Of a stretch of 64,000 nucleotides of DNA, positions 1 through 55,066 are shown piece after piece. The notes under the pieces were generated by a model, which did not search any database, was not told the origin of the DNA, and saw nothing but the letters and a program-made list of their open reading frames with translations. Position 1 is the first letter of the stretch; the number at the start of each line of letters is the position of its first letter. This stretch comes from Mytilus edulis. Taxonomy: Eukaryota. The stretch spans positions 8,804,001 to 8,868,000 of the forward strand of contig NC_092357.1 in the NCBI RefSeq assembly GCF_963676685.1, in the 5' to 3' direction. Position numbers and translations under genes: made by a program.

Positions 1-2959
1 AGCGTTAATCAAAGAATAGTTGTTAAAAGGTCAGAATAACTCAGATTTGAATAAGAGGGGAAATTAGTCGCACGTCAAGAAATCAGAAGTCCAATAAGAC
101 AGTTCTCCCAGCTTGGTCATTCTGTTTCTATATTTTTTTTGGGTAGTAATAACAACCTTTATACTGATATAAGCAACACGCTTTGGTGAGCCATTTCTGA
201 TATAGTTTTTTCCACATGATAGTAATCTATATGATACAAATTGTTTTGATAAAAACAAAAATGTCAGCTTAAACCTATTTGTGACTTTTGAAAATCGGTA
301 CACTACTATTGCCTTTATTTGGTTTTCTATGGTTTATAATAATTCCATTGTATGTCCATTATATTGCAGAAGCTATATAGATGACTTGTTGATGGCATGA
401 TAAAACTAAGAGTTTGTCGCACATCTGTGAGCAAATTGGGATTAATAGGGTTTGGTTTTTTGATGACAGAAGGACTATAAATGTAAAAAAAAAGAGGATA
501 TATCAATATACATTTAAACAAATACTGCATACTGAATGATTTCCATAAATTCATTAATAATTCAGGATTTGTTGTTAAGAATATAAAACAAAGATTTCAC
601 AAGCGTCATTCATTATTTTTGCAGTCGGGAGAAAACTAATTTTGATATGTTTTACTTAACAGCAGGTTTTTAAGAAATTGGTTACAGTGTCAAAATAAAA
701 TGAAATCCACAGCAAGAACTCGTTTCGCTCGACAAAGCCTTTTTCTCATCTAAAGATATATTAATAAAAACAATTATATGTTGTAAAGATCCAATCAAGC
801 AAGATGCTGTGATGAAATGTGATTTGGAATATTAATTATAGTACACTTTTCTTCATTAGCGTAATGGGGTAAAAAAAAGTCCATTGATTTCTGTATGGCT
901 ATAATTTGAAGATAGGATTCAGTGTTTCGGCTCTGTGTTGAACACAATTGGTATATTACTTTGCATACATTTTTATGAATATGTAATTTGTTAGGTTTGA
1001 CCTCTACGCCGTTATGAAACTAATGATATGATGTAAGGTTTCATGTTGGCTTCCTAATTTGATTTATGATAGGAATAATATTCATTCTAGGAAGGAATTT
1101 TAATCTGTTATATGTAATCAAGAATAATTTTGCAAATTTGGTTCATATCATTTGATTAACGTACAATAATATTTTACAATGAATCTATGGAAAATCTACT
1201 GATCATCAACTTCCGTATCTTAAAGATTATTACAAATTGATTTGAATGACATATTGATGGAAAACTCTGAATGGCATGCATAGTAAATGGTTGATACGTG
1301 CAGCTAACCCGATTTCAAAATATTTGATATGAATTTATATAACAGCAGGGAAAAACACGAATTTTGTTGTATGTTTTGTCTTATTAAATTCCTTATTAAA
1401 AGAAAACATACTTGTATGATAGTTGATCGATATAGTCAAACTTTTACTGTTTTTTTTATTTGACCTTTTTCAAATCACTTTGATATTGTTGACAATACCT
1501 CCTTTTACTTACCTTCACACGATTCAATTGACATTTACGATACACTGGTTAACTTTAAATTCTTCTTAAAAAAATTAAGTTTTAATAATTTGTCCGGCTA
1601 ATTTTATTTTGATTTCCTCATGTTATAGTTGTCTCTTATACCTGCTATTTGGGATCTACTTAGGTCAGGTATGTAAATGTTTGTCAAATATTCAAGATAT
1701 TATATTTAGCATTTTTTTTAAATTTGAATATCGCGAAAAGGGGCTACATAACCAATCAATGTTAATTTGACCTAATGCATGCATTTTAGATTAGTACATC
1801 CTTAAGTGAAAAATTGAAATATTATTGACTTGTGCATGTGAAATCATTTAATGACCTTATAAAGCAATGTTGAACACCTATTTATAAAATCACTTAGATC
1901 AGGAAGTAATTTGTCAATTTTTAATTATGGATGATAAAATGTCAAATGTCAAACTATTGAAGAACAAAGTGTCACGGAAAATGCTAGAAATGATATCATT
2001 TCAACTTAAAGCTTTCATATATGACAAACATAACGAGAAGAAAAAGATACGAAATGACTATATGCACCTTAACATGGAAGTCGAAAATGATTTGACAATA
2101 CAATTGCTAAAACAAAAACATCGATTAGTGTTGATTGTTTCTTCAACAGTTTCATTTATAATGTAATTATCGTATGTTTACAAAGATTCCAACTTAAATT
2201 GAATGGTTAGCAAGCTACAGCTTATATACATAATCTCAAACATAATGCAACATGATAAATTCAGTTGTACAAATTGGTTAAATTAGCAGTGCCAATATGT
2301 TACATTCTCAGCTCATTTAGTTCGATTCTCAGAAATGTCTTTGGACAGTGAACTTAAAATACATTGTATGTATAGCGCAGACTTAATTTATTGTTCTTTA
2401 ACATAGTTCTACTGCTGCGATGCAAATTCTGAGTGTCCCTCCGGAGTACAAGATACAACCAAAAGTTTTGGTTTGGTCAGTGTTGCTCAGTCTTAAAAAA
2501 AGTATGTAGGAATTAGTCAACTGATTTGTCATTTTTTTCCTCTGTCACGGCAACATAAGCAATGTCAGTTTTTCTTTAATAAATAGATTTTTAATTATTA
2601 CCTCAGAAATAACGCTTTATCAAATCATGCATCCGAAGCGTCTTCGTGGATTGACCTTCGTCAGAAACGTTAAAAGGATTAATAAGAACCGTGGTATTTG
2701 CAAAGATATAAGACCAAATACGGCATATCCATAGTAGCTAAATTGATCTAAGTACAACTTTGCCTAAAGGAGTTGAAATATATTCTACTTTATAAGGCAA
2801 TAGCACATAATTTATATTATAGTTGGATAGATTTAACAGATGATAACCTTTACAAGAAATCATGCTTTTCTAAGATTGTTTGTGACGTCTTGAGATTCAA
2901 TCAGTTATATGTGTAATAATTGATGCTTTCATCTAGGAGTGATATTTTTTTTATTAGTA

Positions 2960-6029: not shown

Positions 6030-6618
6030 ATACAACAGTAGTCAGTACTTCGTTGTTGAAATGAATATCAATTATATGGTCATTTTATGAATTTCTTGTT
6101 TACGTAAAATATAAATAGTTCGAAATACTAAGGATTTTATCATCCCAGACAAATATTATTTTAGCCGTATTTGGCACAACATTTTGGAAATTTGTGTCCT
6201 AAATGCCTTTCAAATTTGTACGTGTTTGGCTTTCTAGCTATATTGATCTGAGCGTCACTAGTGAGTTGTTTGTAGACAAACGTCTTGTATATTAAATTAT
6301 AACTATTACTATTTACACCACTTGGAAGATGCCACTGCTGGTGGACGTTTCGTCCCCCAGAGTATCAGCAGCTTTGTAGTCAGCACATCGATCTTGACAT
6401 GTTTATCAATTAATATATATGGTTATTATTATAAATTTCCTATTTACAAAAGTATGATTTTTACGAAATTCAATGGATTTTCTTATCCCAGGAATATATT
6501 ACCTTAGACGTATTTGGTTTGATAACTAATTTGATGTGAGCATCACTGATGAGTCTGATGTAGACAAAACGCGCGTTTTGCGTATGAAATTATAAGCCTG
6601 GTACCTTAGATAACTATT
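6030..6618 (+). mobile_element. Tandem (about 1.7 units, about 340 bp period) hammerhead-bearing retrozyme-like repeat, both ribozymes degenerate
   Basis: gtagtcag(t/c)ac recurs at about 6038 and 6376; HHR remnants at about 6258 (ctagtga) and 6546 (ctgatga gtct..agac aaaa); ends cctggtaccttagataacta. Confidence 0.75.
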
Positions 6619-9600: not shown

Positions 9601-10720
9601 ATAATAATGACGTTATATAACCGTTTAAGTCATTGTAAGATTTGAAGATTTGTGAATCATGAATATTATAACCTCATAAAATCAATGACTCATGTCTGTC
9701 TGTTGGCCGCCACTCCTGATCCCTGAAGCCTTGTTCCTGAATTCTGTATGAATGTTTGACTGATATCTACTTATTAAGCCTTTTATAGCAGACTATACAA
9801 TATGGCTTTTTCTAAGTGTTGAATTTAACATGATTAAGTATGATTGCTTACAACCTTAGTGAAGGTATCATTGCATCAATGGCAAACATTACACATGTCC
9901 TTTTTTGTATATCATATGACCTTAAAGTATCTTGCAATCTAACTAACTGCAGTCGTGTTATATAAACGTTTGCTTGATGTGAAAAAAAACCCACAGTTAA
10001 GAGGGTCTTTTGGTGCACTGATTTAAATTCTGTTAGTATACTTATTCAAGAATGTATTCATCACACCCCACCGTTTGATTGACAATTTATTTCCGAACCT
10101 GCAACGTTTACACCGAAACACAAGTGATGCAAGCTTGTATTGCTTGTCGATATAATGATTTCATACGGATCACATGTTAATTATCTCAACACTTCTATTT
10201 TGTTATTAATTCAAATACAATAAACAACAGCATGCACAGTTTTAGTTTTTCATTTAAATATGAAAGCATAAATTAGGACAAAAGATGTATTTAGTTTCAG
10301 GGGAAGTCACTTATACTGATTACCTGGTAAAGTGCAATGTTATTTCAGCATGTCGTTTGTATGAAAACATATTACATTCATACTGAACCATAAATATTTA
10401 AGTACATAAGTAATTGTACCGTGTACTTATATGACTGTTCGTGACTTTTATTTGAGGTAAACACTGCCCTCTCTGATACCCAAGTGTAATTGATGATTTG
10501 TACATTAAATTATAAGGTTTGTCATCGTTGAAGGTCATACTTTGGCTCTTTGTTCTTTATGACTTACTTTATTGAAAGTTATCTCATTTGTAATAAAACC
10601 GCTTCTCTGTACCTTTATAGTATCAAAGAAAATACTCTTAGTTTTCTTCTTCTTTCAAATTTCGAAGATCTTTAAAAGTCAATACAATATTAGACCCTTT
10701 CATCGTGTAATAGTATATGA

Positions 10721-10764
10721 GTATCACTGATGAGTCTTATGTAGACGAAACGTTCGTCTGGCGT
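10721..10764 (+). ncRNA. Minimal type I hammerhead ribozyme (core intact, weak stem I)
   Basis: GUAUCA CUGAUGA GUCU UAUGU AGAC GAAA CGUUCG UC^UGGCGU; core at 10727-10733, GAAA at 10747-10750; one mismatch in stem I. Confidence 0.7.
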
Positions 10765-10799
10765 ATTAAATTATAAGCCTGCTACCTTTTGATAGCTAC

Positions 10800-11170
10800 A
10801 TGTATTATGTGTGTGTTGTTCTGTCCTTTGTGTTCTCCTTTTTATTTGCATTGAAGTCCTGTCATGTAATGTTGTCATTTAATGTTATATTCAACATTGC
10901 CGTTACAACGGGAGGTTTGGCTAGCCACAAAGCCAGGTTCAACCTACCATGTTTTCTTAAAATGTCCTGTACCAATTCAGGAAAAAAGCCATTTTATAAT
11001 ATAGTTTGTTTCCATATGTGTTGTTTTTGAGTGTTGTGTTTCTGTTGTTTCGTTGTTCTCCTCTAATATTTGATGTGTTTCCCTCAGTTTAAGTTTGTAA
11101 CCCGGATTTGTTTTTTTTTCTCAATTTATTGTTTAATTTCGAACGTCGGGATATTACTGCTGCCTTTATC
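10800..11170 (+). mobile_element. Interspersed repeat family C
   Basis: Matches 22340-22685 (+) and 36080-36410 (-). Confidence 0.75.
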
Positions 11171-11905
11171 TAAACATGTGACTGTTCTATACTCTACACA
11201 AGTATTCCCCATTTCAAACTAAAGACAAATTGAAAGAAATGGTATAACTCTGTTTCATAAAAAAAAATGGCCAACGTACAAGTATCTTGTCTGATGGAGG
11301 GATACATCTTACTTTGAAAAGAATCACTCTCACTTAAATGAAAAATTCTCTGAAATTGATAATATCAAGATGTTTGATTTCTTGATTGACAACATATCTG
11401 TTACGTTTGAAGGACGTGTTTTTCAACAAACTATCGGCATTCCCATGGGAACAAATTATGCCCATTTTCCTGCCGACTTGTTCCTTTATTATAATGAGGC
11501 TGACTTCATATAGGAACTTCTGAGGTAAAAGGATAAGTTTAGTTATCAAAGGTACCATGATTATAATTTAGTACGCAAGACGCGCGTTTCGTCAATATCC
11601 TTTAACTTTTCTTTCCACTATGTAGATAATGTTCTCTCACTAAATAATTCAAATCGAATTTAAACGTTATATTATGAGCAAAACAAAAGGTGCCACATGC
11701 CGAGTAGGATCTGCTTGAACGTCCGAAGCACCTGAGATCGCTCAACATTTGTGGTGAGGTTCGTGTTGCTTCATCTTTAGTTTTCTATGTTGTGTCTTGT
11801 AAGCTATTTATTGTCTTTTAGGCTTTTAGTTTTCAGGCATGGCATTGACAGTTTATTTTCGATCTATGAGTTCGACTGCCCCTTCGGTACCTTTCACCCC
11901 CTTTT
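11170..11905 (+). mobile_element. Degenerate Penelope-like RT fragment with associated 3' repeat (family E)
   Basis: Encodes, across frameshifts, LIDNISVTFEGRVFQQTIGIPMGTNYA..ADLFLYYNEADFI and YVDNVLSLNN; interrupted at about 11540-11593 by a retrozyme-family end; followed by gcacctgagatc..tgagttcgactg. Confidence 0.8.
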
Positions 11906-14985: not shown

Positions 14986-15138
14986 TTCATGAAAGCCTTG
15001 GATTTGTTGTAAATTTACGCATGGCCTGCTTGGCAGTGATATTTGTTAAATGTATCCCTCGTTTACACTCAGGATTAAATTTGAATATCATAGCAAAAGC
15101 CTTGTGTAAATTTACAACAAATTTGTGGCTTCCTTGAA
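14986..15138. repeat. About 150-bp palindromic MITE-like element
   Basis: atttgttgtaaatttac / gtaaatttacaacaaat, with further imperfect pairing inward and outward. Confidence 0.65.
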
Positions 15139-16133: not shown

Positions 16134-16677
16134 ACAAGGTTTTAGCATAAACTCATACAACGTACACAAACCCTGACATTAGTTTAGCATCAACAGATCT
16201 ACATTGAAATATCGGTAAGTCTAGAAAGGAAAGTAGTACAATGGAAGGATGCTTTCTGTTGATTAAGAATTTGATATTGTACATGTACTTTGCGGTTTAC
16301 CATATAGTTATATTTTTAATGTCGTGGTATACCATTGTGCAAATTGGTCACTACATATCATGTATTGACACAGGACACAAAGAAGTACTACAAAAATGTA
16401 TGTATCATGTATCAGAGCAAAACAAAAAGATACAATACGCATACGCGTTAATCGAGTTTTGAATCCAACTAATTCAAACTAAACGACAACTCTTTGGGAG
16501 GTCCGTAGATGGCCTGTTGCCAAACAACATGTCTGTCCTACAATGAATCTAGGTTGCAAAACTTTGCAGTACATAAATTCATTGTAAATTTTTATTAATG
16601 ATTAAGAACTATCCTCTTGCATATGAACTTGAAAATTAGTCATTGTGTGAAGATAATTCACGTTGGTAAAGGTCTAA

Positions 16678-17130
16678 AAAAGAAGATGTTGTATTATTGT
16701 CAATGAGGCAAATCTCCACAAGCTCCACCAGAGACCAAATGATAAATATTATCAACTATAGGTCACCGTACTGCCTTCAACAATGAACAAAGCCAAAACC
16801 GCATATAAAGCTATGAAAAGCCCGGAAATAATAATTTAAAACAATTCTAGCGAGAAAAATAACGGCTTAATTTATGTACACAGAATGAACGAAAAACAAA
16901 ATGTACACACAAGAAAACGGCAACCACTGAAATTACGGTTCCTGACTTGGGAGAGGCACATACATACAGAATGTGGCGGGTTTAAACATGTAAGCGGATC
17001 TCAACCCTTCCCCTAACCTGGGACAGTGGTGTAACAGTACAACATAAAAACGAACTACAAAAATCAGTTGAAAAAGACTTGACTCATCAGATGGGTAAAA
17101 CAACAAATACTACAAATACAAGTGGATTGA
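16678..17130 (+). mobile_element. High-copy SINE-like family A
   Basis: aagaagatg..caatgag..ctccac..aactataggtcaccgtac..ccttcaacaatga..caaccactgaa..cctgacttggga. Confidence 0.8.
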
Positions 17131-21190: not shown

Positions 21191-22074
21191 TTATAAAAAT
21201 AAAACAACAATACCGAACTCCGGGTTTATTCAAGAGGGACAAAATAAAATGTTAAGGTTGAAGGTTCTCGCCTGTTAACACCTTAACACTAGCTGCATTG
21301 TATGCAAATATTTTTAACCAAGAGTCTGTTGTTCTATGTTTGTCGTTTTTTGGTGTGGTGTATAGGTGCTTCACGTTTTTTTTAGATAGATAAGACCGTC
21401 GGTTTTTCTGTTTGAATTGTTGTAAACTAGTCATAGCATGGTCCTTTATAGCTTACTGTTCGGTGTGATAGAAAGATTTATGTTGAAGGCCCTACTTTGA
21501 GCTGTTTTTGTTCACTTTTTTACTGTTACTTATTGTGACTGTTTTGCTGAGTATGAATTCGCATTGCTATAAGACGTGTCACGTTACTTTTCCATCCTCA
21601 ATTCATTTACATGTACATAAGTTTGATGTTATATTTGTAATTCTCATCGGATTTTGTCACATGTCTTAACGTTTGCAGTTGTAAATCCTATTTTTTCTGT
21701 TGTATTCCTGTGATAGGTAAAGATAATAAATCATCCAGTTCATTTATTAGATTTAAGTTTGGATCAACGAAATTTACACGATATATTTGGTTTATCGTTC
21801 GATTCAGCAGAAACACCGACATAGCTAGACAGTACAAGTAATTATCTAATTACTACTACAATTTGATATTTATTTGTATTGTAATTTTCACTGTTATTAA
21901 TAAATGTTAGATAAGTCATACAAATCTAATCTTGAATTTCATCCACATTCTTTCTTAATTTGGGAACTCGTCTGAAAAATTCAAACGTGATGTCACTTTG
22001 TACTTTGTGCTTTGCACTGGCTTTGGCTAACACGGCTGAGTATTTTTGTAATGTATCCGTTTGTATTCTGTAGC

Positions 22075-22685
22075 TAGTCACCACTTCATTTTTATCATGT
22101 ATATCTATTATATAGTCATTTTATAAAATTTACTGTTTGCAAAAGTATGAATTATTCTAAATAATAAGATGTTCTTGTCCCAGGCGGATTACCCTGGACG
22201 TATTGGTCACAACTTTTTTTGGAACTTTTGTCCCTCGGTTATCTTCAACTTTGTACTTGATTAGGCTTTTAAACTTTTTTTAATCTGAGCATCGCTGGTT
22301 TGTCTTGTGTGGATGTGGCGCGCATTTGACGCATTAATGTTTGTTTCTTTGTCCTATATTTTATTCAATTTATTTGTATTGTAGCCCTGTCATGTAATGT
22401 TGTCATTTTAATGTTATAATTTACATTGCCTTTGAAAGAGGTTTGGCATGCCACAAAACCAGGTTGAACCTACCATTTTGTTTCTTTAAATGTCCTGCAC
22501 CAGATCAGGAAAATGGCCATTGTTATATTATAGTTCGTTTTTTGTGTGTGTTACATTTTAATGTTGCGTTTCTGTTGTGTCGTAGTTCTCTTATATTTGA
22601 TGCGTTTCACTCGGTTTTGCTTTGTGGCTCGGATTTCGTTTTCTCTATCGATTTATGAATTTTAAACAGCGGTATACTACTTTTT
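22075..22685 (+). mobile_element. Composite repeat: decayed retrozyme unit plus family C segment
   Basis: Same B+C arrangement as 10715-11170 (tgtcatgtaatgttgtcattt..ccacaaaaccaggt..cggtatactac). Confidence 0.7.
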
Positions 22686-24049: not shown

Positions 24050-25070
24050 AAATTACGCTAGTAATGATAAAAGCACGGACTCGTGTGTTTGCCAGTTGTT
24101 TATGTGTCGTATAGTGATAACGAAAGGACAGAAGCGTGTGGTGGCCATTTGTTTCTATGTCGTATAGTAAAGTAATTACAAGAGAACGGACGCGTGTGCT
24201 GATCATTGATTATGTGCCGTAATGACATACCCAAAGAACGGAATCGTGTGCTGATCATTTATTATGTGCCGTAATGACATACCCAAAGAACGGAATCGTG
24301 TGCTGATCATTGATTATGTGCCGTAATGACATACCCAAAGAACGGACGCGTGTGCTGAACATTGATAATGTGCCGTAATGACATACCCAAAGAACGGACG
24401 CGTGTGCTGAACATTGATTATGTGCCGTAATGACATACCCAAAGAACGGAATCGTGTGCTGATTATTGATTATGTGCCGTAATGACATACCCATAGAACT
24501 GAATCGTGTGCTGATCATTGATTATGTGCCGTAATGACATACCCATAGAACTGAATCGTGTGCTGATCATTGATTATGTGCCGTAATGACATACCCATAG
24601 AACTGAATCGTGTGCCGACCATTTGTTTATATGTCGTCAAGTAATAACGAAAGAACAGACTTGATTGTTGACCATTGTTTATTTATCTAATAAAAATAAC
24701 GAAAGCACGGATTTGTGGGTTAACCATTTATTTGTATGTCGTAACGTAATAACGAAATAACAAACTCGTGTGCTGACTGTATACGTCGCTAAGTAATAAC
24801 CAAACATTATATGTCGTAAGGTAACAATGAGAGAACAATCTCGTGTTCTGACCATCTTTTTATGTGTCGTTATTTCAAAACGAAAGCAAGGACTCGTGTC
24901 CTGACCATATTTTTATGGCGTAAACAAATCTCGAAAGAAACAAACTCGTGTGCTGCTCATTGCGTATATGTTGTAACGTTATAACGAAAGAAGAGAACTG
25001 CATGCTGACCATTTGTGTTTTTTTTTAATATAAATAGCAAAAGAAGTAATTCGTGTGCTGACCAGTTGTT
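24050..25070. repeat. 52-bp minisatellite (about 8 near-identical units, 24194-24615) inside older degenerate units
   Basis: Unit gtgtgctgatcattgattatgtgccgtaatgacatacccaaagaacggaatc; flanking units keep ctcgtgtgctgacca and taacgaaag. Confidence 0.92.
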
Positions 25071-26007
25071 TAATGAAGTAATTCCCTCGTTACTTCTGTC
25101 AGTTATATATATGACTGTGTTTATAAAGCATTGCACTATCTCATTTGATTACTAAGACTTGTTATGACCAGCTTTGGGAATAAGATGTCCTTTAATCGTT
25201 ATTTGTATAATTACAGTGTCTCTTGTCATAACATGCTATTACTTATTCTGAAGTATATGGTTGACAACAAAAATAAGCGAGGGAATTAATCTTGGAAAAT
25301 CAATCGTGTGAAGAGATTATTGAGATGTATGATAACCTAAGGGGCAACCAAAAACCGAAATTAGAAAAAAAGGAATACAATATAGTTGATATCGGCTGTC
25401 TTCTTAATAAGCTGACGGTTAATATCGGATAGGATTTTAACCAACTGAGATCTGCATATAAAGTGACATGCCTAATACAACAATTTAAAAAAATAAATAT
25501 AATAGCAACATCCTAACTATAATTCATTGCACATCTAATTGCTATTTCAAACATTTGCATTGTAATGTTGTAGAACCAAAAAGAAACGTCAAAGCTAATT
25601 ATGTTTTGAAATAGAAAAGAAAAGAAAAACAAATAAGTCTTGGGTTTCTTTTGAACTGAGTTTTACTGTGCGTATTGCTGTATAGTTGTTTTGTATTCCA
25701 CATATGCTACAGGTACTAAGGGAAGTTTAAGATCTGGAAAAACGTGTTTAATTTGTTAGCCCAATTCAGAAACCTCTGTTCTTTGGTTTATGTATATGTT
25801 TCGAAGTTTAGAGAGGCGTCCTTTTTCTCGGTGAACTAGTTTACATTGTTTTCAGAGACCAGCTGAAACCCATCTCAGGATGCGGAATTTTCTCGCTATG
25901 TCCCTATGATGAATACCCATTGGCGACCATTGTTGGTTTTCTGCTTTTTTGGTCGGGTTGTTGTCTATTTGACATATTATCCATTATCAATTTAATTGTC
26001 AATATGT

Positions 26008-26320
26008 AAATAAAGGCAACAGTAGTGTACCGCTGTTCAAAACTCATAAATCCAGGGACAAAAAACAAAATCGGGGTAACAAACTAAAACCGAGGGAAAC
26101 GCATTAAATATAAGAGGAGAACAACGACATAACACCGAAACGTAGCACACACAGAAACGGACCAAGCATCAGCCAAACACCACGAGAATAACAAATATAA
26201 CAAGAAAACCAAATACATGAATTTGGGATAGACAAGTACCGTGCCACGTCTGATCTCAATATCTCAAAAATAAGAGAAAACACAAACGACTCAACGTTAA
26301 AATGCAACACAAATGTTAAA
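26008..26320 (-). mobile_element. Family C variant
   Basis: aaataaaggcaacagtagtgtaccgctgttcaaaactcataaatc shared with 36080; internal segment shared with 21570-21660. Confidence 0.65.
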
Positions 26321-27360
26321 TTTAAGAGGTCACTGTACAAATTAGGAATGTTACTACTTGATATCGGAAGATGTTGTATGAGTTCCGATGAGACAACTCT
26401 CCATCAAAGTCACACTTTATAAAAGTAAAACCATTATAGGTCAAGGTACTAGTTCCTTTCCAGAAATTAAGTCTGTCATGTTTAACAAAGATAGTAATCA
26501 AACAAACATTAACTCAATCGGTAAACCGTCAGGAAAGTTTCCTTATTGTCCACCAGTCACTGAATTAACTAGTAATGTAATAATCAATTATAAGAGTGAT
26601 TCACCTTCTAGCTGTAAATATCGGTCCAATTTATCCAACACATAATAAATAATTATCATCACTCGCACATCATCTTCTATAAGAAAGCACAAATACGAAA
26701 CTAATTGTTGTAATAACTGTTATGTTGAATTAAAATCCTGGTACCTTTGATAACTAATATCAATTATTACAATTTGTCGATTATTTGACATGTTTTGCCC
26801 TATGACGGTGTATTTTTCACGCAGGTTGATCGGGTTCTTTTTGTAAATTATTTATTTGTAGAATAGTTCTTTACCCGGTGTTTTCTTTTTCTTTTTTTCT
26901 AAGACTTGAAATACATTTATTGAAAATCACCTGAGTAAGATTTACCTTGTATAACCCAGGGAAGTCTACACAAGGGTCCCTGTGTTTACATTTTATCGGC
27001 AGTAGGTGCATCTTCCCTTGATCTTAATTTGTAATATTTTACTTACCATGGACAGGACATGATACTTGAAAATATAAGGCAATGAAGTCGCATATCAGTG
27101 CACCATCAATTTTGAGAACAACTATCTCAACGTTTCGTACACCAACAAAATAGTTTTGCTGACAAATTTATTTTATTTTTATATTCTCTACCAAAATAAA
27201 GGTCTAGTCAAAACAATTTGCCGAATAAAAAAAAAAAGAAAAAAGCTCGCACTAGCGCGCTCGTTTGGTATTCTTGTTGATAAAGTCAATATCAAAAACA
27301 AAGTTGCCGTTGTTTTCACTTACCGCTGTTATCAAAGAATTTTGATATAATATTTTTCAG

Positions 27361-27542
27361 ATCTAATGGTAGGGATCTTCCTGGTACTTACCGATCTAAT
27401 CTCGAAGATCACTATCACGTGGGAAACACTGGATCCCGGATGTAAGATAGTCGAGTTTCTACAGGCTATGTCAACTTGCACTTCAGCATTCTCATTGGTC
27501 GACTCAGTGTAGTGATCCGTCCACTAAATAGAGCGGCAAATG
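27361..27542 (+). pseudogene. GPCR pseudo-exon TM2-TM3-ICL2
   Basis: Acceptor tttttcag|AT CTA ATG; reads (D)LMVGIFLVLTDLISKITITWETLDPGCKIVEFLQAMSTCTSAFSLV, frameshift near 27501, then LSV-VIRPLNRAAN with the DRxxA segment missing; donor gtaggt at 27543. Confidence 0.85.
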
Positions 27543-31001: not shown

Positions 31002-31046
31002 AATATACTAACATAGCTTCGATCGTGTGATAAAAAGGATTACGAA

Positions 31047-31615
31047 TAAGAAGATGTGGTACAATTGCCAATGAGACTCTCCAAAAGAGACCTAATGACA
31101 CATACATTAGCAACTATAGGTCACCGTACGGCTTTCAACAATGAGCAAAGCCCATACTACATATATTGTAGTCAGCTTTAAAAGGCACCGAATGGTGAAT
31201 ATTCAAACGAGAAAACCGACGGCCTCATCTATGTACAAAAAATTAACGAAAAACAAATATGTAACACATCAACAAACTGCTACCACTGAATTACAGGCTC
31301 TTAGTTTAGGACAGACACATACACACAGTAAGTGTGGGGGGGGGGGGTTAAATATGTTAGTGGGACCCCAACCCCCCTCTTACCTGTGACAGTTGTGTAA
31401 CAGTACAAAAAAAGAACTAAATATAAAAATCAGTTAAAAAAAGCTTAATTCATATGATGGGTACAAAGCGAAATACATCTAACAAAACACAAAGCGGAAG
31501 TGGTCGAGTGCTTGTTTATCCTCACAAACAAAACCTTTGAGAACTGATATGAGTGTACTCGCAGTTACTGACAGCTAGTTCAAAGCCACTAACAACTATT
31601 GAAAAATCATGCAAC
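31047..31615 (+). mobile_element. Family A copy (long)
   Basis: Same motifs; extends to gtactcgcagttactgacagctagttcaaagcc. Confidence 0.8.
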
Positions 31616-35478: not shown

Positions 35479-35719
35479 CTTTTATTTTCTGTTGGAGCTC
35501 ATATTTCTTCTTTAACCTATTATGTGTGTATGATTATATACCTGATCCATATTCACAACACAATACTGCTATAAATACTTTTATACAAAGTTTGGCACCC
35601 TCAACAGTGCTGCCATACCTTTTATATTCCTGCTCTTCAATTTTAATACCGTCAAATTTGCGTATGGAAGACATAATCGCCACCTGTACTCGCCACCATC
35701 TACACATTCATATTTGTAA
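35479..35719 (+). pseudogene. GPCR terminal pseudo-exon TM6-TM7-C tail
   Basis: tttttcag|(A)FIFCWSSYFFFNLLCVYDYIPDPYSQHNTAINTFIQSLAP, 1-nt deletion at about 35598-35601, then LNSAAIPFIFLLFNFNTVKFAYGRHNRHLYSPPSTHSYL* (TAA 35717-35719). Confidence 0.88.
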
Positions 35720-38269: not shown

Positions 38270-39105
38270 CAAAGACTCACAAAACCAAGGGACATTTACA
38301 TCAACAGTTATAAATAATAAGTAAGAAACAAAACGAACTCCACTAAAAACCGGGAGTGAAATCAGATGCTCGGAAAGGGTAAGCATTTCCTGCACCGTAT
38401 ACGGCACCCGTCGTGTTATTTCTTTGTTCAGTTCGGTAATAATTGAAGGTTATTATGACTGACGAAGAATATCAGATATGATTTCTGACACACTTTTGTC
38501 ATAATGGCCAATCAGCTCATGATGGCGACCATAACATTTCTTGAGGTATGACCTTATTTCGATTGATTATTAGCCCTGTCTTAGCAACTTTTGAGAGAGC
38601 GGTATTCCTCGTTCAACAAAATCAACGTACTTTGAGCTGGCTCTAGAGTAACGTATCAATTGAGACACATACACTCCTTATGATGGTGCCGCTGGGATGT
38701 TGCTACACAGAAATGGAAAGTTGACTATAGGACAATTAAAATTATCGCGTTTGTCATAAATTTTGGTATTCTACGTACCATCAGTAGCTATTTCGAGGAC
38801 AAGGTATATATATGAAGCAGATTTATCTGTGTTGGTAGTATCTTTAATTTCAAGTTCACTTGGATATATTAAATGTAAGTGATCACTGAATCTATTATTA
38901 TTAAGAGACAGTATATCATCAATATACCGAAAGGTGAAATTAAAAGACTGGGCTAATTTCTTTTCTCCTTTCTGTACAAGCCCTTGGATAAATTCTGCTT
39001 CATAGGAATACAAAAACAAATCTGCAAGTAAAAGAGCGCAATTAGTGACCATTAGGATTCCAATAGTCTGTTGGAAGTCCAAACCTCCAAATTCAACAAA
39101 CATTG
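38270..39105 (-). mobile_element. Penelope-like retroelement, 5'-truncated RT fragment plus 3' region
   Basis: ORF 38771-39103: FQQTIGILMVTNCALLLADLFLYSYE..FRYIDDILSLNN..IYPSELEIKDTT; continues through stops as TKIYDKRDNFNCPIVNFPFLCSNIPAAPS*GVYVSQLIRYSRA, typical of PLE RT and thumb. Confidence 0.88.
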
Positions 39106-39790: not shown

Positions 39791-40529
39791 ATCTAAACGA
39801 ATCTCATTACGGAGTTTAGGTGTAATACAGTTATGTTTTATTAAAGCTTCCAATAGGATTTTAGATAGATATTACATTTTGAGATCAAGTGTGCTGTAAG
39901 TATCGACTTTAAACTAAGAGACAACAAACTGTTTATCACATTGTCAATGCGATCAAATTGAAGTTAAACGATTTTTAAAAACAATTTAGATGAATATTTA
40001 ACCGATTTTTAACTACTTGACTGCTTTTTATAAATGGTCAATAACCATAAACAGTTTATATTCGGAACAAAGATATCGTGTTCAGGAGGGTGGTTTGCAT
40101 GAGCTTAAATTTAGTTCATGTAAATTCCTTCACAAGACAGGCATCTACAAATCACTAAAGAAAAAACGTAAGACTGGGCAACTTGAACACCACAAGAACG
40201 AGGGAAATAGTAATGTCTTATCTTCATGGCCTTATTATATTTTCTGTTGATAAATATAAATTTGAAAAAAAATAGTAATTAAAGTAGATCGAGTGTCCCT
40301 TTCTGAGCATCGGTCCCGTGCATGTTGCAGACATACAATTTGGTTAAAAAACATTTACCAATTATTATTCAAAAACAATAGAAACAACCCGAATTAAATA
40401 ACTGTGATTGCGTTAATTTCAATGTATTTCAACGAAAAGAACAAGGAATTTTTTTGGAAATTTTCTTGAAAAAATTACAATTCATCAACAGTATTTTTTT
40501 TTTAAATTTAATTCACTTAAAATGAAATA

Positions 40530-41140
40530 TAAAAAAAAAATGTGGTATGATTGTCAAAGAGACGACTCTCCACAAAAGACCAAAATAACACAGAAGTTGA
40601 CAACTATAGATCAGCGTACGGCCTTCAACACTGAGCAAAGCCCATACCGCATAGTCAGCTATAAAAGGCCACGAAATGACAATGTAAATTGAGAAAACTA
40701 ACGGCCTTATTAGTGTACAAAGATTGAACAAAAAAAAAATACGTAACACATAAACAAACGACAACCACTGAATTACAGGCTCCTGACTTGAGAGGCACAT
40801 ACATACAGAATCTGGCGGGGTTAAACATGCTAAAGGGATCTTAACCCCCTAACCTAGGACAGTTGTATAACATTACAACATAAGAAAGAACCATAACAAT
40901 CAGTTGAAAAGTGCTTCATCAGATTGTCAAAAATACAAGTTGACGTGGACGGGTACTTGTCATAACAACAAAAATACACTAGGTACATACCTAGCAGTAC
41001 TCGCAGTTAACTGAAAGCTAGTTCAAAGTCTCCAACGACAAATAAAAAATTATGCATCTAAGACAAAATTATCAATCCGTACACATCTAACATCCAATGG
41101 GTTTCGTCTAAAGACGTCATAAACAGTCAGAGGAAAACAT
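40530..41140 (+). mobile_element. Family A copy (long)
   Basis: Same motifs as the 31047 and 54630 copies. Confidence 0.8.
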
Positions 41141-43519: not shown

Positions 43520-43720
43520 AAGTAAACTTTGATATTTTTGCAAAAACTACGGATTTTTTTATTTCAGGCATAGATTACTTAGCCGTATTTGGCACTTTGG
43601 AATTTCGGGTCCTCAATGCTTTTTAACTTTGGACTTGTTTGGCTTTATAAATATTTTTATCTGAGCGTCACTGTTGAGTTTTATGTAGAAGAAACAAATT
43701 CGGGTACCTTTTGTAACTAG
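43520..43720 (+). mobile_element. Retrozyme-like repeat copy, degenerate
   Basis: agccgtatttggcac..gagcgtcactgttgagttttatgtagaagaaac..ggtaccttttgtaacta. Confidence 0.75.
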
Positions 43721-44679
43721 TGTATTGTCGATTATAGTGGTCAATCAAATAATATTAAATTGTTATATCGTAGCTAAGAGAAATCTCAATACATGTCAAG
43801 CATAAGACTTGCCGTAGGTTATTAATAACACAAAAATCAAACAAACATTTTAGCCTTCGTCTGACCTGTAAACAGAGGAAACACCCAATCAGCTTCTGTT
43901 TAACATGTAAACTTACCGGTTATTTACTAACGATAACACAGTTTCCATTTATCATAGAGTACTTATCTTGAAAAACAGTACAAAACCTAAATCTTCTTTG
44001 AGAGACTGATGCATATATTTGGGTATCATCAGTGTTGTTTAGTAACGCTATTTTTCGATACAATATTTAATGGATAAGCTATATTTTTATTTTTAGCCAT
44101 TGGTTTGTCAGTTTATCTTATATCTATGAGTTTGACCCTCTGGTATCTATCGACCCTCTTCTATAACACAATATTAGTAAAAAATACAGGTAATTCTATC
44201 GTTGTCTACAAATTCTTATTGTTGCCAACATTACAAACGTCTTGATAAAACCCATTTTTATGTAGTTTAAGTATAAAAGTTTTTCTGGGTATACAATTAT
44301 CTTATTTAAACCAATGTGTTAACTTTTTAGCATACACATAGTTTTTGTATGGTGAATAGGATAGTTAAATAACTCCATTAGGACAATTTGAATTAAATCC
44401 AAGAATTCAAAACTCCCCTTCCTATATGCATGCATTCCATTTGTGGTCAAAATATATCCTAACTTTAACAGTTTTATTATAAATATGATCTTCTCATAAC
44501 GCAACAGTAATCTACCGATGTTCTTTTAATCTCATGTCTATGAATAACATAGATACTTGGAGTGGGTATTCACGTGACAAAAAGACGTCGAGACAAACTT
44601 GTAAATAGATCTTGCAAAACAATACACAGAACAAAAGTTCGTTTAGAGATCGGTTGATTATCTGCAATTTGATATGAAA

Positions 44680-44950
44680 AAAAGAAGATGTTGTACATGT
44701 TTGATTGCCAGTGAGACAACCGTCCACAAGAGACCAAAATGACACAGAAATTAACAACTATAGGTCACCGTACTACCTTCAACAATGAGCAAAGCCCATA
44801 CCTCATAGTCAGCTATAAAAAGGCCCCAAAATGACAATGTAAAACAATTCAAACGAGAAAACTAACGGACTTCTTTATATAAAAAAAAAATGAACGAAAA
44901 ACAAATATGTAACACATTAACAAACGACAACCACTGAATTACAGGCTCCT
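44680..44950 (+). mobile_element. Family A copy
   Basis: Close match to 52788-53050. Confidence 0.8.
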
Positions 44951-47318: not shown

Positions 47319-48825
47319 AAGACAAATTCATAATTAAATTTCAATCGTTATTTCAGTGTACAATCTTCATTAAAGAAATTCCGCGAAAAGATGTTATCTT
47401 CTTTGGTCCCTACACTAGGTGACGTCATAGGTATGATTCCGGCGTCAAACATAAACAGTGGGCTTTTTCTGGTTTCTGTGCCGCTTCAAAATGTAATAAA
47501 ATTTGATAAAAAGAAGATTCGTAGGTGAAACGTGTGAGTTTTTTTGCTTATTATTGTAGAAATTACATGTCAATACATTCAGCAATTCAAAATGTCGGCT
47601 TTCTTAGTTACAGACAAGGAGATAGAGAATGTTACGCTAACTGTCATCCAATCAGAATCATTGATACAAAATAATTGCATTATAATTGTTATTAATTGTC
47701 TTATGTTAGAGCAAAAAATGAATAAAAGTACTATCAATAGAAATTGAGACGATAGCTATGGTACTTAGTGTTAATGTTGTTTTCTTCAAAAACGAGTGTG
47801 TTATAAAATATTATTCATCAATTTCGTATAATATGCGTAAAATTTAATTTGCAAGCGATAAATATTTCGTATCAAAGATTGACATTTGAGGTTAAATCAC
47901 TTTAAATAAATAATTGACAAATTACTTCCGCATCTGAGGGATTTTCAGAAATCAATAGGTAATTCAGGAATGGTTATTAAGAATATAAAAAGGTTTGACA
48001 CGCTTCAGTCATTATTTGTAGAATCGGGAGAAAACTAATTTTGATATGTTTTACTTAACAGCAGGTTTCTAAGAAATTGGTTACAGTGTCAAAATAAAAT
48101 GTAACCCACAGCAAGAAATCGCTTCGCTATACAAAGTATCTGATCTATCTATAGATGTATTAAATTAATGTAAAAGTCCAATCAATCAAGACTGATGTGA
48201 TGAAATGTGATTCTAAAATTAATGATAGTACATTTTTCTTTATTAGCATAATGGAGTATTTAAAAACGGAAATTTTTTAAAACTCAGAATCGTCATACAG
48301 AATTTAACGTTATTCAAATAATAGTTGATAAAAAGTCAGAATAATTTAGCTGTGAATAAGAGGAAAATGTGTCACACAACAAGAAATCAGAACTAAAAAA
48401 AAGACAGTTCGACTAGAATGCTCACAGTGTGGTAATATGATTTTATTGAGGAAAAGCATGTTCGTGTACACTGATATAAACAACCAGCTTCTGATATTGG
48501 GTTTTTTTCCACATGGAAGCAATGTATATAAAGCTAGCCTAAATAAGGGTGGTTTTTTTTTAAATATACATTGTATTGCCTTTTTTCTCTCAATCGATTT
48601 ATGACTTTGAACACCAGTATACTATAGTTGCCTTATTTTTCCAATGGACATTTTTCAGTTTTCTGCGGTTTATTATGAATCCATTGTATGTACATTATAT
48701 TACAAAAGCTATATACTTGACTTGTTAGAGGGCATGATGAAATTCAGAGCTAGTCGCACATCTGTGAGCAAATCGTGATTAATGGGGTTTTGTTTCTAGA
48801 TGGCACAAGGATTATAAATGTAAAA

Positions 48826-49068
48826 TAGTTATCAAAGGAACCAGGATTATAATTTAGTACGCCAGACGTGCGTTTCGTCTACAAAAGACTCTTCAGTGAC
48901 GTTCATATCAAAATATTTATAAAGTCAAACAAGTACAAAGTTGAACAGCATTGAGGATCCAAAATTCCAAAAAAGTTGTGTTTCAAAAATACGGCTAAGG
49001 TAATCTATGCCTAGGATAAGACAAAGTCTTAGTTTTTCAAAAAAATTCAAAGTTTTTTAAACAGGAAA
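48826..49068 (-). mobile_element. Retrozyme-like repeat copy, specific to duplication copy 2
   Basis: Begins tagttatcaaaggaaccagg (family 3' end on the minus strand); empty site tataaatgtaaaa..aagagga at about 477-500 in copy 1. Confidence 0.85.
48859..48902 (-). ncRNA. Minimal type I hammerhead ribozyme, intact core
   Basis: Minus strand reads ACGUCA CUGAAGA GUCU UUUGU AGAC GAAA CGCACG UC^UGGCGU: CUGANGA box, 4-bp stem II, GAAA, short stem III, GUC cleavage triplet, 6-bp stem I (ACGUCA/UGGCGU). Confidence 0.85.
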
Positions 49069-50799
49069 CAAGAAGAAGTATGAAAACATTTAAAAATTAA
49101 AAATAAATGTTCTGATGACTTATAATCTGTCAAATGTGCCATTTAAGACTATTAGGTCTGAAAATTAGAAAATATCATTCGTTGCATATTTTGGAAGAGT
49201 TCTATTGATTTATGTATGGCTAAAATTTGATTAAAGGATTCCGTCTTTTGGCTGTGTGTTGAACAAAATATGTGAATTAATTTCGATACATTTTTATAAA
49301 TTAGTAATTTGTTAGGTTTGAAATCGACGCGGTTATAAATAAAACTTGTGATATGATGTAAGGTTTCTTGTTGGCTTCCTAATTTGATTTAAGATAAGAA
49401 TTATACTCATTCTAGAAAGAAATTTTAATCTGTTATATCTAATCAAGTGTAATTTTGCAAATTTTGTTCATATTATTTTATTAACGAACATTAATATCTT
49501 ACAATGAATCTATGAAAAATTTGCTGAAAATCAACTTCCGTATCTTAAAGATTATTACAAACTGATTTGAATGAACTATTGATGTAAAACACTGAATGAG
49601 CATGCACAGTAAATGTTTGATACGTGCAGCCAACCCGATTTCGTAATATTTCATTTGAATTTATATATAGCAGGGAAGGGAAACGAATTTGGTTGTGTGT
49701 TTTCAATTTCTTACATTCCTTTTTAAAAGAAAACATGCTTGTTCAATAGTTGATCGATGTAGTCAAGCCTCTAGATTTGTTCGTTTTTGTTTTAAAACCA
49801 CTTTGATATTTTTGTAATTACCTTTTTTTTACTTATCTTTTTCAACATGCAATTGACACGTATGATACACTGGATAACTTTGGGTATCCCTGTTTACAAA
49901 CCGACATTCTTTTTCTGTATCTTCTAAATTAGGGCATTATATTTAAAGTATGAGGATTAATGTAACCTAAAACAACCATTTTGAAACACTCGCTCGTAAA
50001 TTAATTTAAATTAACTTTTCAGTTGTACACTTTGTAATTATATACAAAAACAATTTTGCTCGCATTGGGTTATACCTTTATAAATCAAGAACCTTGAAAG
50101 AAGCTGTCATATTTGATAACTCAACATTTTTTGCTGTTTATATCATTGCTTTCTAAGCAACTTTTTGATAGTTTCTGTAAAAGAGGGACGAAAGATACCA
50201 AAGGGACGGTAAAACTCATAAATCTAAAATAAATGTAAGTTTAGTGGGTGTTAGCGCTTATGTCATTTTTACTATCAACCTCAATGGTACAGAATATAAA
50301 TTTAGTTTTTTGTGTGTTTCACGCTCTCTCGAGAAACATGTTGTAGCAATGTACCATGTGACAATATTTCGGATTACCTTTCCATTATTAATTACCATCC
50401 TTGAAATTAGATGAAGAATCGAGTTAAAGATTTTCTTGTTTTTGCTAATCAACCGATCACACTCAGATGAAAAAGCATGTAACCGAATTTACATTTATTT
50501 ATATTTAATTAAATCTTTTTGATTGACATGATTGATACAGTTCGTCATAAAAAAATTGATAATTGATAATGTATCTTATTGAAGAACATTCGTTTAAATG
50601 ATTGGGATAATACTATATGTTGTTGATTTTATTTTGATATATTCAACATGATCAAGTTATCAATGTCTGTTATATCTGCTGTTAACGATGCACTTAGGTC
50701 AGGTTTATAAATGGTTGTCAAATGTTCGGACTCCTCGGGTGTTGTTTTTTTTTAGAACGATACAGGGCAATAACACCAAATCAGTTCATTTAAGATGTC

Positions 50800-50981
50800 G
50801 AAAAACTAATGATTTTCTTATTACAGGCATAGATTACCTTAGATGTATTTGGCACAAATTTTTGGAATTCTGGATTCTCGATGCTCTTCGACTTGTTTGG
50901 CTTGATAAATATTTCGATATGAGCATCCCTGATGAGTCTTATGTAGAAGAAACGCGCGTCCTGGTACCTCTGATAACTATT
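50800..50981 (+). mobile_element. Retrozyme-like repeat copy with damaged hammerhead
   Basis: gtatttggcacaa..ctgatgagtcttatgtagaagaaacgcgcgtc|ctggtacctctgataacta; stem II closing pair broken, 3' strand of stem I deleted. Confidence 0.8.
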
Positions 50982-52785
50982 TCATTGCTAATGAAATGTC
51001 ATCTTCCAAACTTTAAACAGATTCTAGTTTTCTTTTCTTTCAATTTTAGACCCAAATTTTACCATTGAAATATCAGGTAAAAGTCCACGTCAGTGTTTTT
51101 CCGTATTTAAAAAAAAATATCACGAAAGGGAGCTCCGTTGCCGATTAATGTACTCTTGACTTTAAGATTTAATTATAAATTCCAGACTTGTTTTCATTTT
51201 AACCTAAGTACGTCCTTGAGTAATAAAATGAAACAATAATTGACTTGTGCGTGTGAAATCATTTAATGACTAGATAAAGCAATGTCGAAAATGTATTGAT
51301 TTATATCAATCACTTAGATTCGGAAGTAACTTGTAAATTCAAAATTGTGGGTGATAAAACGTCAAATGTAAATCTACTGAAGAACAAAGTGTCATGGAAA
51401 TTGCTGGAAATGATATCATTTCAACTTATCTGTAAAGCTTTCATTTGAAAGAATTGTTTTATTTTGAAAATCCGATTACAGTACCACATATATCAACTTA
51501 ATTACTAGTCAAGTTGGAAGAAATAATGATTACCATTAGAATAATGAGAAGAAAAATATACCAAATGAATATACAAACTATTACATGTCAACCAGGAATT
51601 AACAATGCAATTGCTAAAAACAAAAACAACGAAGAGTGTTGATTGTTTTTTAGTAGTTTCATTTATAATGTGATCATCGTTTATTTGAAAACCAAAACGT
51701 CGTCTTAAATTGAATGATCAGCAGGCTACGGCTTATATACATTCTCTAAAATACAAATTGGTTAAATCATCAGTGTCCATCTGTTACATTATCAGCTCAT
51801 TTAGTTTTATTCTCAGAAATGACTTTGGTCAGTGAACTCAAAAATGCAATGTAAGTATAGCTCAGACTTAATTAACCTTATTGTACTGCTGTGATGCCAT
51901 TTCAAGGTATTCCTCCAGAGTACCTCATAAAACCCACAGTTCTTATTGGGTTTGCTTTGCTCTGTCTTAAGTTTATTATGCAGGATTTAGTCGACTAATT
52001 TATCATTTCTCGTCTTTTTTGTATGGCATTGTCAGTTCCTCTTTGCTATTTCAGTTTTGAATCACCTTTGGTATAATCAGCTCTTTTTTATGAAGTTATC
52101 ATCAACAACAAAAAAAGAATAACAAATTTTTGTGGACTTACTTCATCAGGAACGGTCAAAGCTGAAAATTCCAAGGTAATGCTTTTTAAAAACCGACGCA
52201 ATTGTAAAAAGACCAAACGCTACTTATCAATGATTGCAAAATCCGTCTTATAATGCTGATGATAAAAAAGAAAAGAGATGCAAAAGATAAGCAAGTGACA
52301 TTTAAACGGATAAGTCGAAAATAAACTGCGAAGACATAACCCAAAAAGAAAACGACCAACAGATAAACAAAAGTACACAAAACACAGCATCGAAAACCAA
52401 CGACTGATCAACACTATCTCAAATAAACTAGGGTTATCGCAGGTGCTCTAGACGAGCATACAGATCCCACTCCTAATATAACACCCGTCTTTATTATAAT
52501 TATTTATGTTAATACATTGATGTCAAAAGGGAAACTAGTAAGAATGTACTTACACACACAGTAATAAGTTAACATTGATCACGAATACTCTTAAAGACTA
52601 ATACCGTTTATTATTAGAGATATTGCTATTGACACTGTTTCGCTATGACAGCCCTATTATCTTTGTTGATCGGTATAAGCGTATTGGAATAATGGACAGT
52701 CTCAGATGTATAGTTTGCAAAGTTTTCTTTTCTAGAAAATGCAATCTGAGGATAGGAAAAATTTGTCAATTTATGATATGGTATA

Positions 52786-53090
52786 AATAAGAAGATGTAG
52801 TATAATTGCCAATGAGACAACTATCCACAAAAGACCAAAATGACATAGACATTATCACCCATAGGTCACCGTACGGCCTTCAACAATGAGCAAAGCCCAT
52901 ACCGCATAGTCAGCTATAAAAGGCCCCGATAAGACAATGTAAAACAATTCAAACGAGAAAACTAACGGCCTTATGTATGTAATAAAAAATGAATGAAAAA
53001 CACATATGTAACACATAAACAAACGACAACCACTGAATTACAGGCTCCTGACTTGGGAAAGGCACATACATAAATAATGCGGCGGGGTAG
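52786..53090 (+). mobile_element. Family A copy, specific to duplication copy 2
   Basis: Empty site at about 3900-3930 in copy 1; tataaat on both flanks (possible TSD). Confidence 0.85.
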
Positions 53091-54627
53091 AAATATAAAT
53101 CATTAAAATGGACAAACAAAGAAAGATGTATTTTTATAGCAGGAAATTACAAGTTTATGAAATCATGTTATACTATACAATATTATTAATATGCAACATT
53201 GCTTTATTGGAAGTACTAAGAATCGCATTTGTTTTGAATGTCAAAAAATTGCAACAATAGACAAAAGACGCAATAATTACTAGATTTATATATTGTATTT
53301 CAACAGGCTTGGTCCTGTTTAAAGTACCAAACGTTAATACTTGATGCACCAGCAAACGGATATTTTGGATAATTTAGCTGTTCTGCGTTATATGTTGTCA
53401 TACATCATGTGCTTTTAATTTTTGGGCGGGACTTGTATTTGCAAACATATTAATAAATTAATGTTTTTATTGTTTGTATTACAGTCATTGTCACCTGTTC
53501 AACTGAGTAATGTTGTTATGTTTATAACTATGTATCACATTAACAATCATAAGAGGTAAGTTACTATAAACACCAAGACTACAACAATAATGGCTTACAG
53601 GCGACACATGTGACTGCCGTAAATTAGCTACATATTTAAGATTTATAGAAATGCAAAGACAAATAAAATTGAAAACAACTGTTGACATTTACAGACCAAT
53701 AATTATAATATATATATATATATATATGATTCAAACAAGATCACGATCAAATTAATTTTCAGCAAGAAAGTAATGACACTGTATACCCTTGTTTGACATT
53801 GTAGACATTTCAGTTTAAGTATGATTACACATTGTGGTCAATATGATGGAATTGTACGGACTGTCATGCATACAAGTGAGAGGTTGTGCTAGCCTTCATA
53901 AACAAATTTAATTAAAGCTATTTTGTTTTCTAAATTAGAAAATGCGTGTACCAAGTTAGAAAAAAAGTTGTTGCAATTCGTTTGATTTGTTGACCTTCTC
54001 ATTTTACCATTTGTTAAGGGAATTTCTGTTTTAACATTTCTTTCAATTTTGGCATTTTTTTAATGTTACAATGAACAAGTGCCAAAATTATTAGAGAACA
54101 TTTTGACTAAAATGAACCGAAACTGAGTTCGGTAAATATTAAAAAAGAAAATGCATATGGAACGATAAAAACCGTAACTTGAAAGAGAAAAAAAAATTGT
54201 ATGCATGGCTGAAAGATACAGTAACAAAAGAGTCTGATTATCTTAGTCATTTATATTAATACATAATTTTCTGATTTTGCATTACTCTTCATTTATGAAA
54301 TCAAAGCAATCTTATGTTGTGATTTATTACTGCTAAAGTCGTGCTTGTTGTAGTTTGATTCATTTGAATTAATTATGATGTATATAATGATATTGTTTTC
54401 CCTCTATTTCCAAATTTGATTGATGTCCTTCTTGTATTGTTTTTCGGATAGTTCAGCCTTATATCTACCCGCATTATTATAGAATATGGTCACTGATCTA
54501 TGATTTCTGTTTTCTTTCTTCCCCGACTTAATGTGATATATGATCATTGGTTTTGATTTGTCCTTTGATCTTATTTCTGTCCGTTTCAATGACAGCAAGG
54601 TTTACATTTCAAACAGAAATAATTGAT

Positions 54628-55066
54628 ATAAAAAAGAAGATGTGGTATGATTGCCAATGAGACAACTACCAACAAAAGACCAAAATGACACAGACATTAA
54701 CAACTATAGGTCACCGTACGGCCTGCATCAATGCGCAAAGCCCATACCGCATAGTCAGCTATAATAGGCCCCGATAAGACAATGTAAAACAATTCAAACG
54801 AGAAAACTAATGGCCTTATTTATGTAAAGGAATGAACGAAAAACAAACATGTAGCACATAAACAAACAACAACCACTGAATTACAAGCTCCTGACTTGGG
54901 ACAGGCAAATACATAAATAATGTGGCGGGGTTAAACATGTTAGCGGGATCCCAACCCTCCCCTAATCTGGGACAGTGGTATAACAGTAAAACATAAGAAC
55001 GAACTATAAAAATCAATTGAAAAAGGCTTAACTCATCAGATGACCAAAAATACAAGTGAACGTGGT
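54628..55066 (+). mobile_element. Family A copy, specific to duplication copy 2
   Basis: Empty site acagaaataaatgat..tactattt at about 5356-5390 in copy 1. Confidence 0.85.

Follow-up and report, generated by a model that had tools for sequence, protein, structure and literature searches.

The closest described system is the non-LTR retrozyme of Mytilus galloprovincialis, in which a type I hammerhead ribozyme is carried by non-coding, low-GC tandem repeats of 350-390 bp present in thousands of copies (Cervera and de la Pena 2020, PMC7229834). The text of that report distinguishes two related ribozyme families, describes a cloned genomic repeat that cleaves itself at a rate of about 0.1/min and builds up in circular form, and proposes Penelope-like elements (PLEs) in general as the mobilisers. 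The minimal hammerhead of PLEs themselves lacks helix III, according to a review (PMC7761336). In Xenopus, retrozymes are homologous to PLE terminal repeats, and both an origin from PLEs and a non-autonomous partner model have been put forward (Li, Clavereau and Pollet, July 2026 preprint, 10.64898/2026.07.22.740005). Which enzyme mobilises animal retrozymes, and how, is a question posed in both the mussel report and this preprint. Two further PLE clades are relevant. Naiads, which encode an N-terminal GIY-YIG domain, CxC and DKA motifs and a C-terminal reverse transcriptase (RT), were described as being without canonical hammerheads, and the two Mytilus Naiads in the table of that study carry no hammerhead-core note (Craig et al. 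2021, PMC8557442). The Poseidon element of Anolis carolinensis starts reverse transcription internally at an AC-rich stem-loop, uses AT-rich targets, and does not need ribozyme cleavage for insertion (Frangieh et al. 2024, PMC11167929).

The locus examined here, in a 64,000-nucleotide stretch of Mytilus edulis DNA (the window), is an ordinary copy of the known retrozyme family. As in M. galloprovincialis, the family consists of tandem type I hammerhead units, here of 355-356 and 365-368 bp, whereas the locus copy is a sub-unit fragment. It is probably a 5′-truncated, single-ribozyme insertion of this 355-368-bp family that is likely dead and was likely pasted into place by a Naiad RT. The text of PMC7229834 reports no fixed 3′ end, conserved hairpin or named helper, unlike the present analysis, and the supplements of PMC4918200 yielded no Mytilus match. 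No published statement of a link between Naiads and retrozymes was found in a search that left most subscription journals and some supplements outside its scope.

The retrozyme insertion and its hammerhead

The first-pass annotation had claimed a full catalytic core on the minus strand, complete pairing of stems I and II, and a predicted cut between 48865 and 48864, and all three points hold on reading the sequence. From 48902 down to 48859, the two arms of stem I, forming six pairs (one G.U), enclose in turn CUGAAGA, stem II (4 bp closed by a 5-nt loop), GAAA, stem III (2-3 bp) and GUC. The check that had been suggested, a search with the Rfam Hammerhead_1 model (RF00163), returned a match over model positions 1-45, i.e., all positions, at 33.9 bits (E=1.2e-4), 0.1 below the gathering score of 34. 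The motif possesses the core (CUGANGA, GAAA, NUH) and three stems, with stem I open, that define membership of RF00163. At the level of sequence, the hammerhead is confirmed as real and above chance. Thermodynamic folding (z = 0.13 and 0.85) supported neither side, and the probability of the active fold was 0.0002 for the locus copy and the family copy alike.

Across the 1.37-Gb genome (14 large contigs), a tight hammerhead pattern produced 17,387 matches, with 0 in the reversed control. A genome search with the 243-bp carrier gave 4,998 candidates; among the 40 scored, the best others were 90-92% identical and lay on many contigs, and many matches stood in tandem arrays with a period of 354-356. 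Two subfamilies, with units of 355-356 bp and 365-368 bp (about 367), are 79% identical to each other. The family thus shows the features of non-LTR retrozymes, namely a short non-coding tandem unit (within 150-450 bp) bearing one type I hammerhead each and dispersed at high copy number, and, set beside the description of the published Mytilus retrozyme, it fits in unit size, copy number and the presence of two families. A separate search for PLE-type hammerheads with a shorter stem III gave 89 matches that by sequence resemble retrozyme variants, and these were set aside.

The 243-bp carrier is almost certainly a member of this family. It is 90% identical to a real unit from another locus (L023) and spans unit positions 159 to 356 followed by +1 to about +41, where numbering starts at the cleavage site. 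Its 5′ end falls at 49065-49068 and its 3′ end at 48820-48826, with microhomology of up to 4 nt per junction, so that the extent first assigned to the carrier was right within this microhomology; comparison of the junctions revealed no clear target-site duplication. The hairpin found at +42 to +107 in tandem copies is missing from the locus copy. Other retrozyme and Naiad pieces in the window are listed in Table 1, including a weaker second hammerhead whose motif spans 10721-10766.

Table 1. Retrozyme- and Naiad-related features of the window
Feature	Position	Strand	Basis or remark
Older tandem retrozyme array, decayed and internally deleted	6036..6618	plus	78-86% to unit A
Second, shorter hammerhead fragment, followed by Naiad-type 3′ end to about 11172	10715..10798	plus	22.5 bits
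Naiad-1 copy 3′ end, stopping at hairpin boundary	26007..26311	minus	94%
Broken Naiad RT fragment	38646..39103	minus	Query leading to intact Naiads
Retrozyme fragment	43524..43695	plus	86% to unit A
5′-truncated retrozyme insertion, 0.68 of 356-nt unit	48824..49068	minus	Comparison with family units
Cleavage site to fixed 3′ end of family, 41 nt	48824..48864	minus	Array-end mapping
Type I hammerhead, intact core	48859..48902	minus	Rfam Hammerhead_1 match and sequence reading
Predicted cleavage site	48864..48865	minus	Sequence; after GUC, C17 = 48865
Retrozyme fragment	50798..50960	plus	86% to unit A
Paralogous position in old duplicate, element absent	477..500		Right flank not colinear, no clean empty site

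Insertion ends and a hairpin shared with Naiad elements

To define the boundaries of family insertions, array ends were mapped relative to the cleavage site in two sets of loci. Of 51 independent arrays, 44 have their 3′ end between +39 and +49, and seven end elsewhere. In the best-match set, 27/29 loci end at +39 to +48, or 24/26 once three rows from a single array and a duplicated pair are each counted as one. The pattern-hit set comprised the first 30 matches on one contig (C1), picked regardless of their ends; after four same-array pairs and one duplicated array were merged, 25 independent arrays remained, 20 of them with ends at +39 to +49 and five with ends at 23, 32, 36, 158 and 354 (row L058 reads 367, although in L059 this array stops at 48). 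Ends distributed uniformly over the unit would predict about one array per set at this site. The fixed 3′ end holds in both subfamilies, while 5′ ends scatter and array lengths range from 0.3 to 4.8 units. Since the ends lie past the cleavage site, they do not correspond to the ribozyme cut. Instead, in tandem copies, a hairpin of ~65 nt directly follows the fixed end.

Homologs of this hairpin open two Naiad families, Naiad-3 (85% over 74 nt, E=1e-17) and Naiad-1 (71% over 70 nt), and in both families the hairpin stands just upstream of the start codon. The hairpins of retrozyme A, Naiad-1 and Naiad-3 have the same predicted fold, with z of -3.2, -1.9 and -3.6, respectively. In an alignment of 14 related sequences picked by similarity, 10/20 pairs were changed on both sides, compared to 5.1 +/- 1.4 after shuffling, and none of 500 shuffles scored as high; this count is not a probability, because the sequences are related and similarity-picked and the structure (an RNAalifold consensus with one pair added by hand) was derived from them. 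Naiad insertions also stop at the hairpin. Among 30 Naiad-1 loci, the 17 that are terminal copies all stop between -1 and +8 relative to the hairpin and the other 13 continue into the next copy; in a second match set, 27/40 stop at the hairpin boundary and 13/40 continue; and all three Naiad-3 insertions checked end at the same hairpin position. The second start site of PLE type, which would leave a tail of 30-40 nt, was seen neither in the retrozyme arrays nor at the 17 Naiad-1 ends; in the literature, a 30-40-bp tail is optional among PLE-type insertions. A family-level link between retrozymes and Naiads through this hairpin appears well supported by these comparisons. The same hairpin with different flanks also occurs in a third short family (L094:758-854, L085:745-816, and L145:3244-3316).

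Candidate helpers of the Naiad-1 and Naiad-3 families (L096/L098 and L175-L178) keep many intact frames, of 1007 aa within a 4,751-bp tandem unit for Naiad-1 and 1000 aa within a 3,370-bp unit for Naiad-3. In both, a GIY-YIG domain precedes the RT within one frame: PF01541 matches Naiad-1 at 138-226 of 1007 aa (E=1e-4) and Naiad-3 at 135-172 of 1000 aa (E=0.036), and PF00078 matches Naiad-3 at 645-854 (E=1e-4). CxC and DKA motifs are found in the Naiad-1 translation and CxC in a Naiad-3 fragment. The C-terminal RT, partial tandems, 5′ truncation and lack of a canonical hammerhead in these candidates likewise agree with the domain order and hammerhead status described for Naiads in PMC8557442. 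In contrast to the Naiads described there, the two families carry the retrozyme hairpin and Naiad-1 bears a decayed hammerhead block; the available text of that study draws no link to retrozymes.

This Naiad-1 block, 295 nt long, aligns with the rest of the retrozyme at 72% identity (139 bits, versus 30 bits for the best of 100 shuffles), and its hammerhead core is decayed in all 29 Naiad-1-type rows listed. Derivation of the retrozyme from Naiad-1 as a deleted terminal repeat was considered and not adopted: the block is itself 5′-truncated and ends exactly at +41, which fits an old captured insertion as well, so that the block may derive from a retrozyme that was captured and may not be the ancestor. 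Naiad-3 has no match to the hammerhead region of the retrozyme. In the window, at 10715-11172 (+) and 22048-22684 (+), a hammerhead fragment with a nearly intact core is joined to a Naiad-1-like 3′ end, with the parts in the same order as within Naiad-1; these may be retrozyme/Naiad-1 intermediates or chance insertions.

A third young family, Naiad-2, has no retrozyme match inside the element, and it was ruled out as a retrozyme partner for want of common sequence. Its insertions also stop just before a hairpin, of unrelated sequence (L165:6685-6760, z -3.0), which may mean that the signal is particular to each Naiad family. By eye, the N-terminal frame of one Naiad-2 copy is apparently interrupted by TGA where cysteines might be expected (L165:7150-7300 and 8410-8560); clam and spider Naiads were reported to encode selenocysteine (PMC8557442).

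A candidate helper for retrozyme mobilisation

The common end position and the shared hairpin, together with intact frames in the two families, suggest on sequence grounds that Naiads are the probable helpers of retrozymes. This helper comparison was made among the Naiad families; canonical PLEs in the genome from the Penelope, Poseidon, Neptune and Hydra groups could serve as helpers too. In the proposed mechanism, a Naiad protein would bind the hairpin and nick AT-rich DNA, and reverse transcription would begin internally, just 5′ of the hairpin, a mode with an in vitro precedent in another Penelope-like element. With a linear monomer cut by the ribozyme as template, such an internal start would copy only about 41 nt, so that a circle or an uncut multimer would be needed. 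The RT would then run backwards over the cleavage junction and round the unit, with random stops giving 0.3 to 4.8 units. At the locus it would have stopped after 0.68 unit, short of the hairpin, leaving a copy that makes no unit circle and is without the likely RT-binding signal. The A. carolinensis Poseidon is similar in that a stem-loop directs an internal start, which for that element was shown in vitro and is here deduced from insertion ends; it differs, according to the available text of PMC11167929, in belonging to another PLE clade and in having two start sites and a tail, whereas the mussel family has one site.

A broader version of this mechanism, to which we give about even chances, is that viroid-like retrozyme circles hijack the hammerhead-free Naiad via its 70-nt RT-recruiting hairpin and that the ribozyme-made circle has been selected. 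With a Penelope-type RT starting just upstream of where it binds, a template would have to be circular or tandem to be copied whole, hence selection for a circle made by the ribozyme. If true, the hairpin and the ribozyme would amount to a minimal cis-acting module, portable to any RNA circle, for its integration by Naiads. The Naiad link would give the ribozyme and the circle a reason and would extend the connection between retrozymes and PLEs to a clade described as hammerhead-less. By offering a candidate protein family, a candidate RNA signal and a start nucleotide, it also makes the question of retrozyme mobilisation accessible to direct in vitro testing.

An unlikely alternative is that the same dead copy was mobilised by a hammerhead-bearing canonical PLE or by a LINE, with the hairpin of Naiads reflecting ancestry or serving as a promoter or translation signal. 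The candidates discussed in the available texts of PMC7229834 and PMC7761336 are indeed hammerhead-bearing PLEs, and the hairpin directly precedes the Naiad start codon. The homology in the Xenopus preprint involves pLTRs belonging to annotated PLEs, and its survey detected Naiads in the coral alone; the vertebrate-focused text, in which Mytilus, mussel, bivalve, tail and stem-loop go unmentioned, shares with the present proposal the retrozyme-PLE homology and the non-autonomous partner model, and describes no Naiad homology, shared end point or binding signal. However, neither a promoter nor a translation signal requires that retrozyme and Naiad insertions stop at the same hairpin position, and the retrozyme hairpin is closest to that of a very young, intact Naiad family. 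Mobilisation by Naiads is accordingly preferred.

The fixed end itself could be explained differently, as the fixed 3′ end of linear multimeric RNAs, set by termination or processing and followed by ordinary target-primed copying with neither a circle nor an internal start. Non-LTR elements usually combine a fixed 3′ end with 5′ truncation of variable extent, and the retrozyme end sits in a short T-rich stretch. Nevertheless, arrays of up to 4.8 units hold the same site internally, so that transcription must read through it, and neither a poly(A) nor a repeat tail follows the end in the retrozyme arrays. Moreover, according to the text of PMC7229834, circular forms predominate among these RNAs in mussel tissue. 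Taken together, these observations make a fixed RNA end improbable.

Age and activity of the copy and its surroundings

The window contains an old duplication of about 68-83% identity, and the first-pass annotation had placed an empty site for the element within it. Copy 1 of the duplication does lack the element, but colinearity breaks down on its right side: the copy matches up to about 488, after which 527-871 matches 47930-48258, and 49069-49200 has no counterpart. A clean empty site lies elsewhere. The duplicated region occurs five times on contig C14, and in one paralog outside the window (L039/L103, near 8,982,988, about 130 kb away) the flanks join directly. In contrast, a closer paralog (L038/L102), with flanks 88-93% identical, carries the same insertion minus about 98 bp, hammerhead included; L102 and the locus copy have the same 5′ junction and one common substitution against the family. 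The deleted form, as in L038/L102, is also present in contigs of a public run (X12) that may come from the source sample. Absence from two more distant paralogs bears out the claim that the element inserted after a segmental duplication, and its arrival is thus dated between the old duplication and the recent one. Since another paralog shares it, the insertion is not recent. Pairwise alignment of the locus copy with its best genomic match shows 13 substitutions and 7 gap columns; 29 other family copies have 0-8 substitutions each from their majority. No host exons were found near the insertion in the paralog comparison.

The copy had also been proposed to cleave probably best as a dimer, which is not supported, and it is not of the minimal PLE type. 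In the family, the stem III 8-mer is a perfect palindrome. The locus hammerhead carries four changes against its best genomic match, and one of these, a central change in the 8-mer, breaks the palindrome and lowers the stability of the self-duplex to -3.1 kcal/mol, compared to -13.3 kcal/mol for the family, thereby removing the basis for a dimer. No second ribozyme stands in tandem at the insertion, and with a single ribozyme no unit-length RNA would be released; in addition, the cloned mussel repeat self-cleaves. The minimal PLE-type dimer hammerhead has a helix III that is lacking or palindromic, whereas at the locus helix III is present (2-3 bp) and is no longer a palindrome. By the criterion of the Xenopus preprint, active retrozymes have at least two tandem hammerheads, and the locus copy has one hammerhead in less than one unit.

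RNA depth was zero on both unique flanks in 2/2 RNA runs, for which 19% and 13% of the data were read and the tissue is unstated. Reads placed on the element numbered 42 and 3, every one fitting only partly; none of the 42 from the RNA-Seq run was 99% alike, and these reads came from other copies. This is weak evidence that the locus copy is silent. Given its single ribozyme, sub-unit length and missing hairpin, the copy is very likely immobile, and it is likely dead. Judging from its intact core, it might still cleave minus-strand transcripts running through the locus, slowly and in monomeric rather than dimeric form. The original view of a recently moved, still active copy that cleaves a minus-strand transcript best as a dimer draws on the core and stems I and II, which are intact here and lost in the paralogous copy, yet it is highly improbable in light of the broken palindrome, the single ribozyme, the insertion held in common with a paralog, and the RNA data.

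Several other features were observed in the window. A rhodopsin-family GPCR exon lies at 27351-27509 (+; PF00001, E=1e-4), with paralogous copies up- and downstream, an arrangement suggesting that the repeated region is a tandem cluster of GPCR genes; no Pfam match was obtained for a putative TM7 exon at 35546-35716. A long imperfect inverted repeat at 15000-15124, which matches MIR5512 weakly (36.6 bits, compared to a gathering score of 139), is probably a MITE-like hairpin. A tandem repeat with a period near 52 bp occupies 24060-25072 and also occurs in the downstream paralog. Finally, an abundant dispersed repeat of about 300-440 bp has six copies in the window, at 16671-17106, 31045-31466, 40527-40948, 44665-44950, 52767-53088, and 54623-55065.
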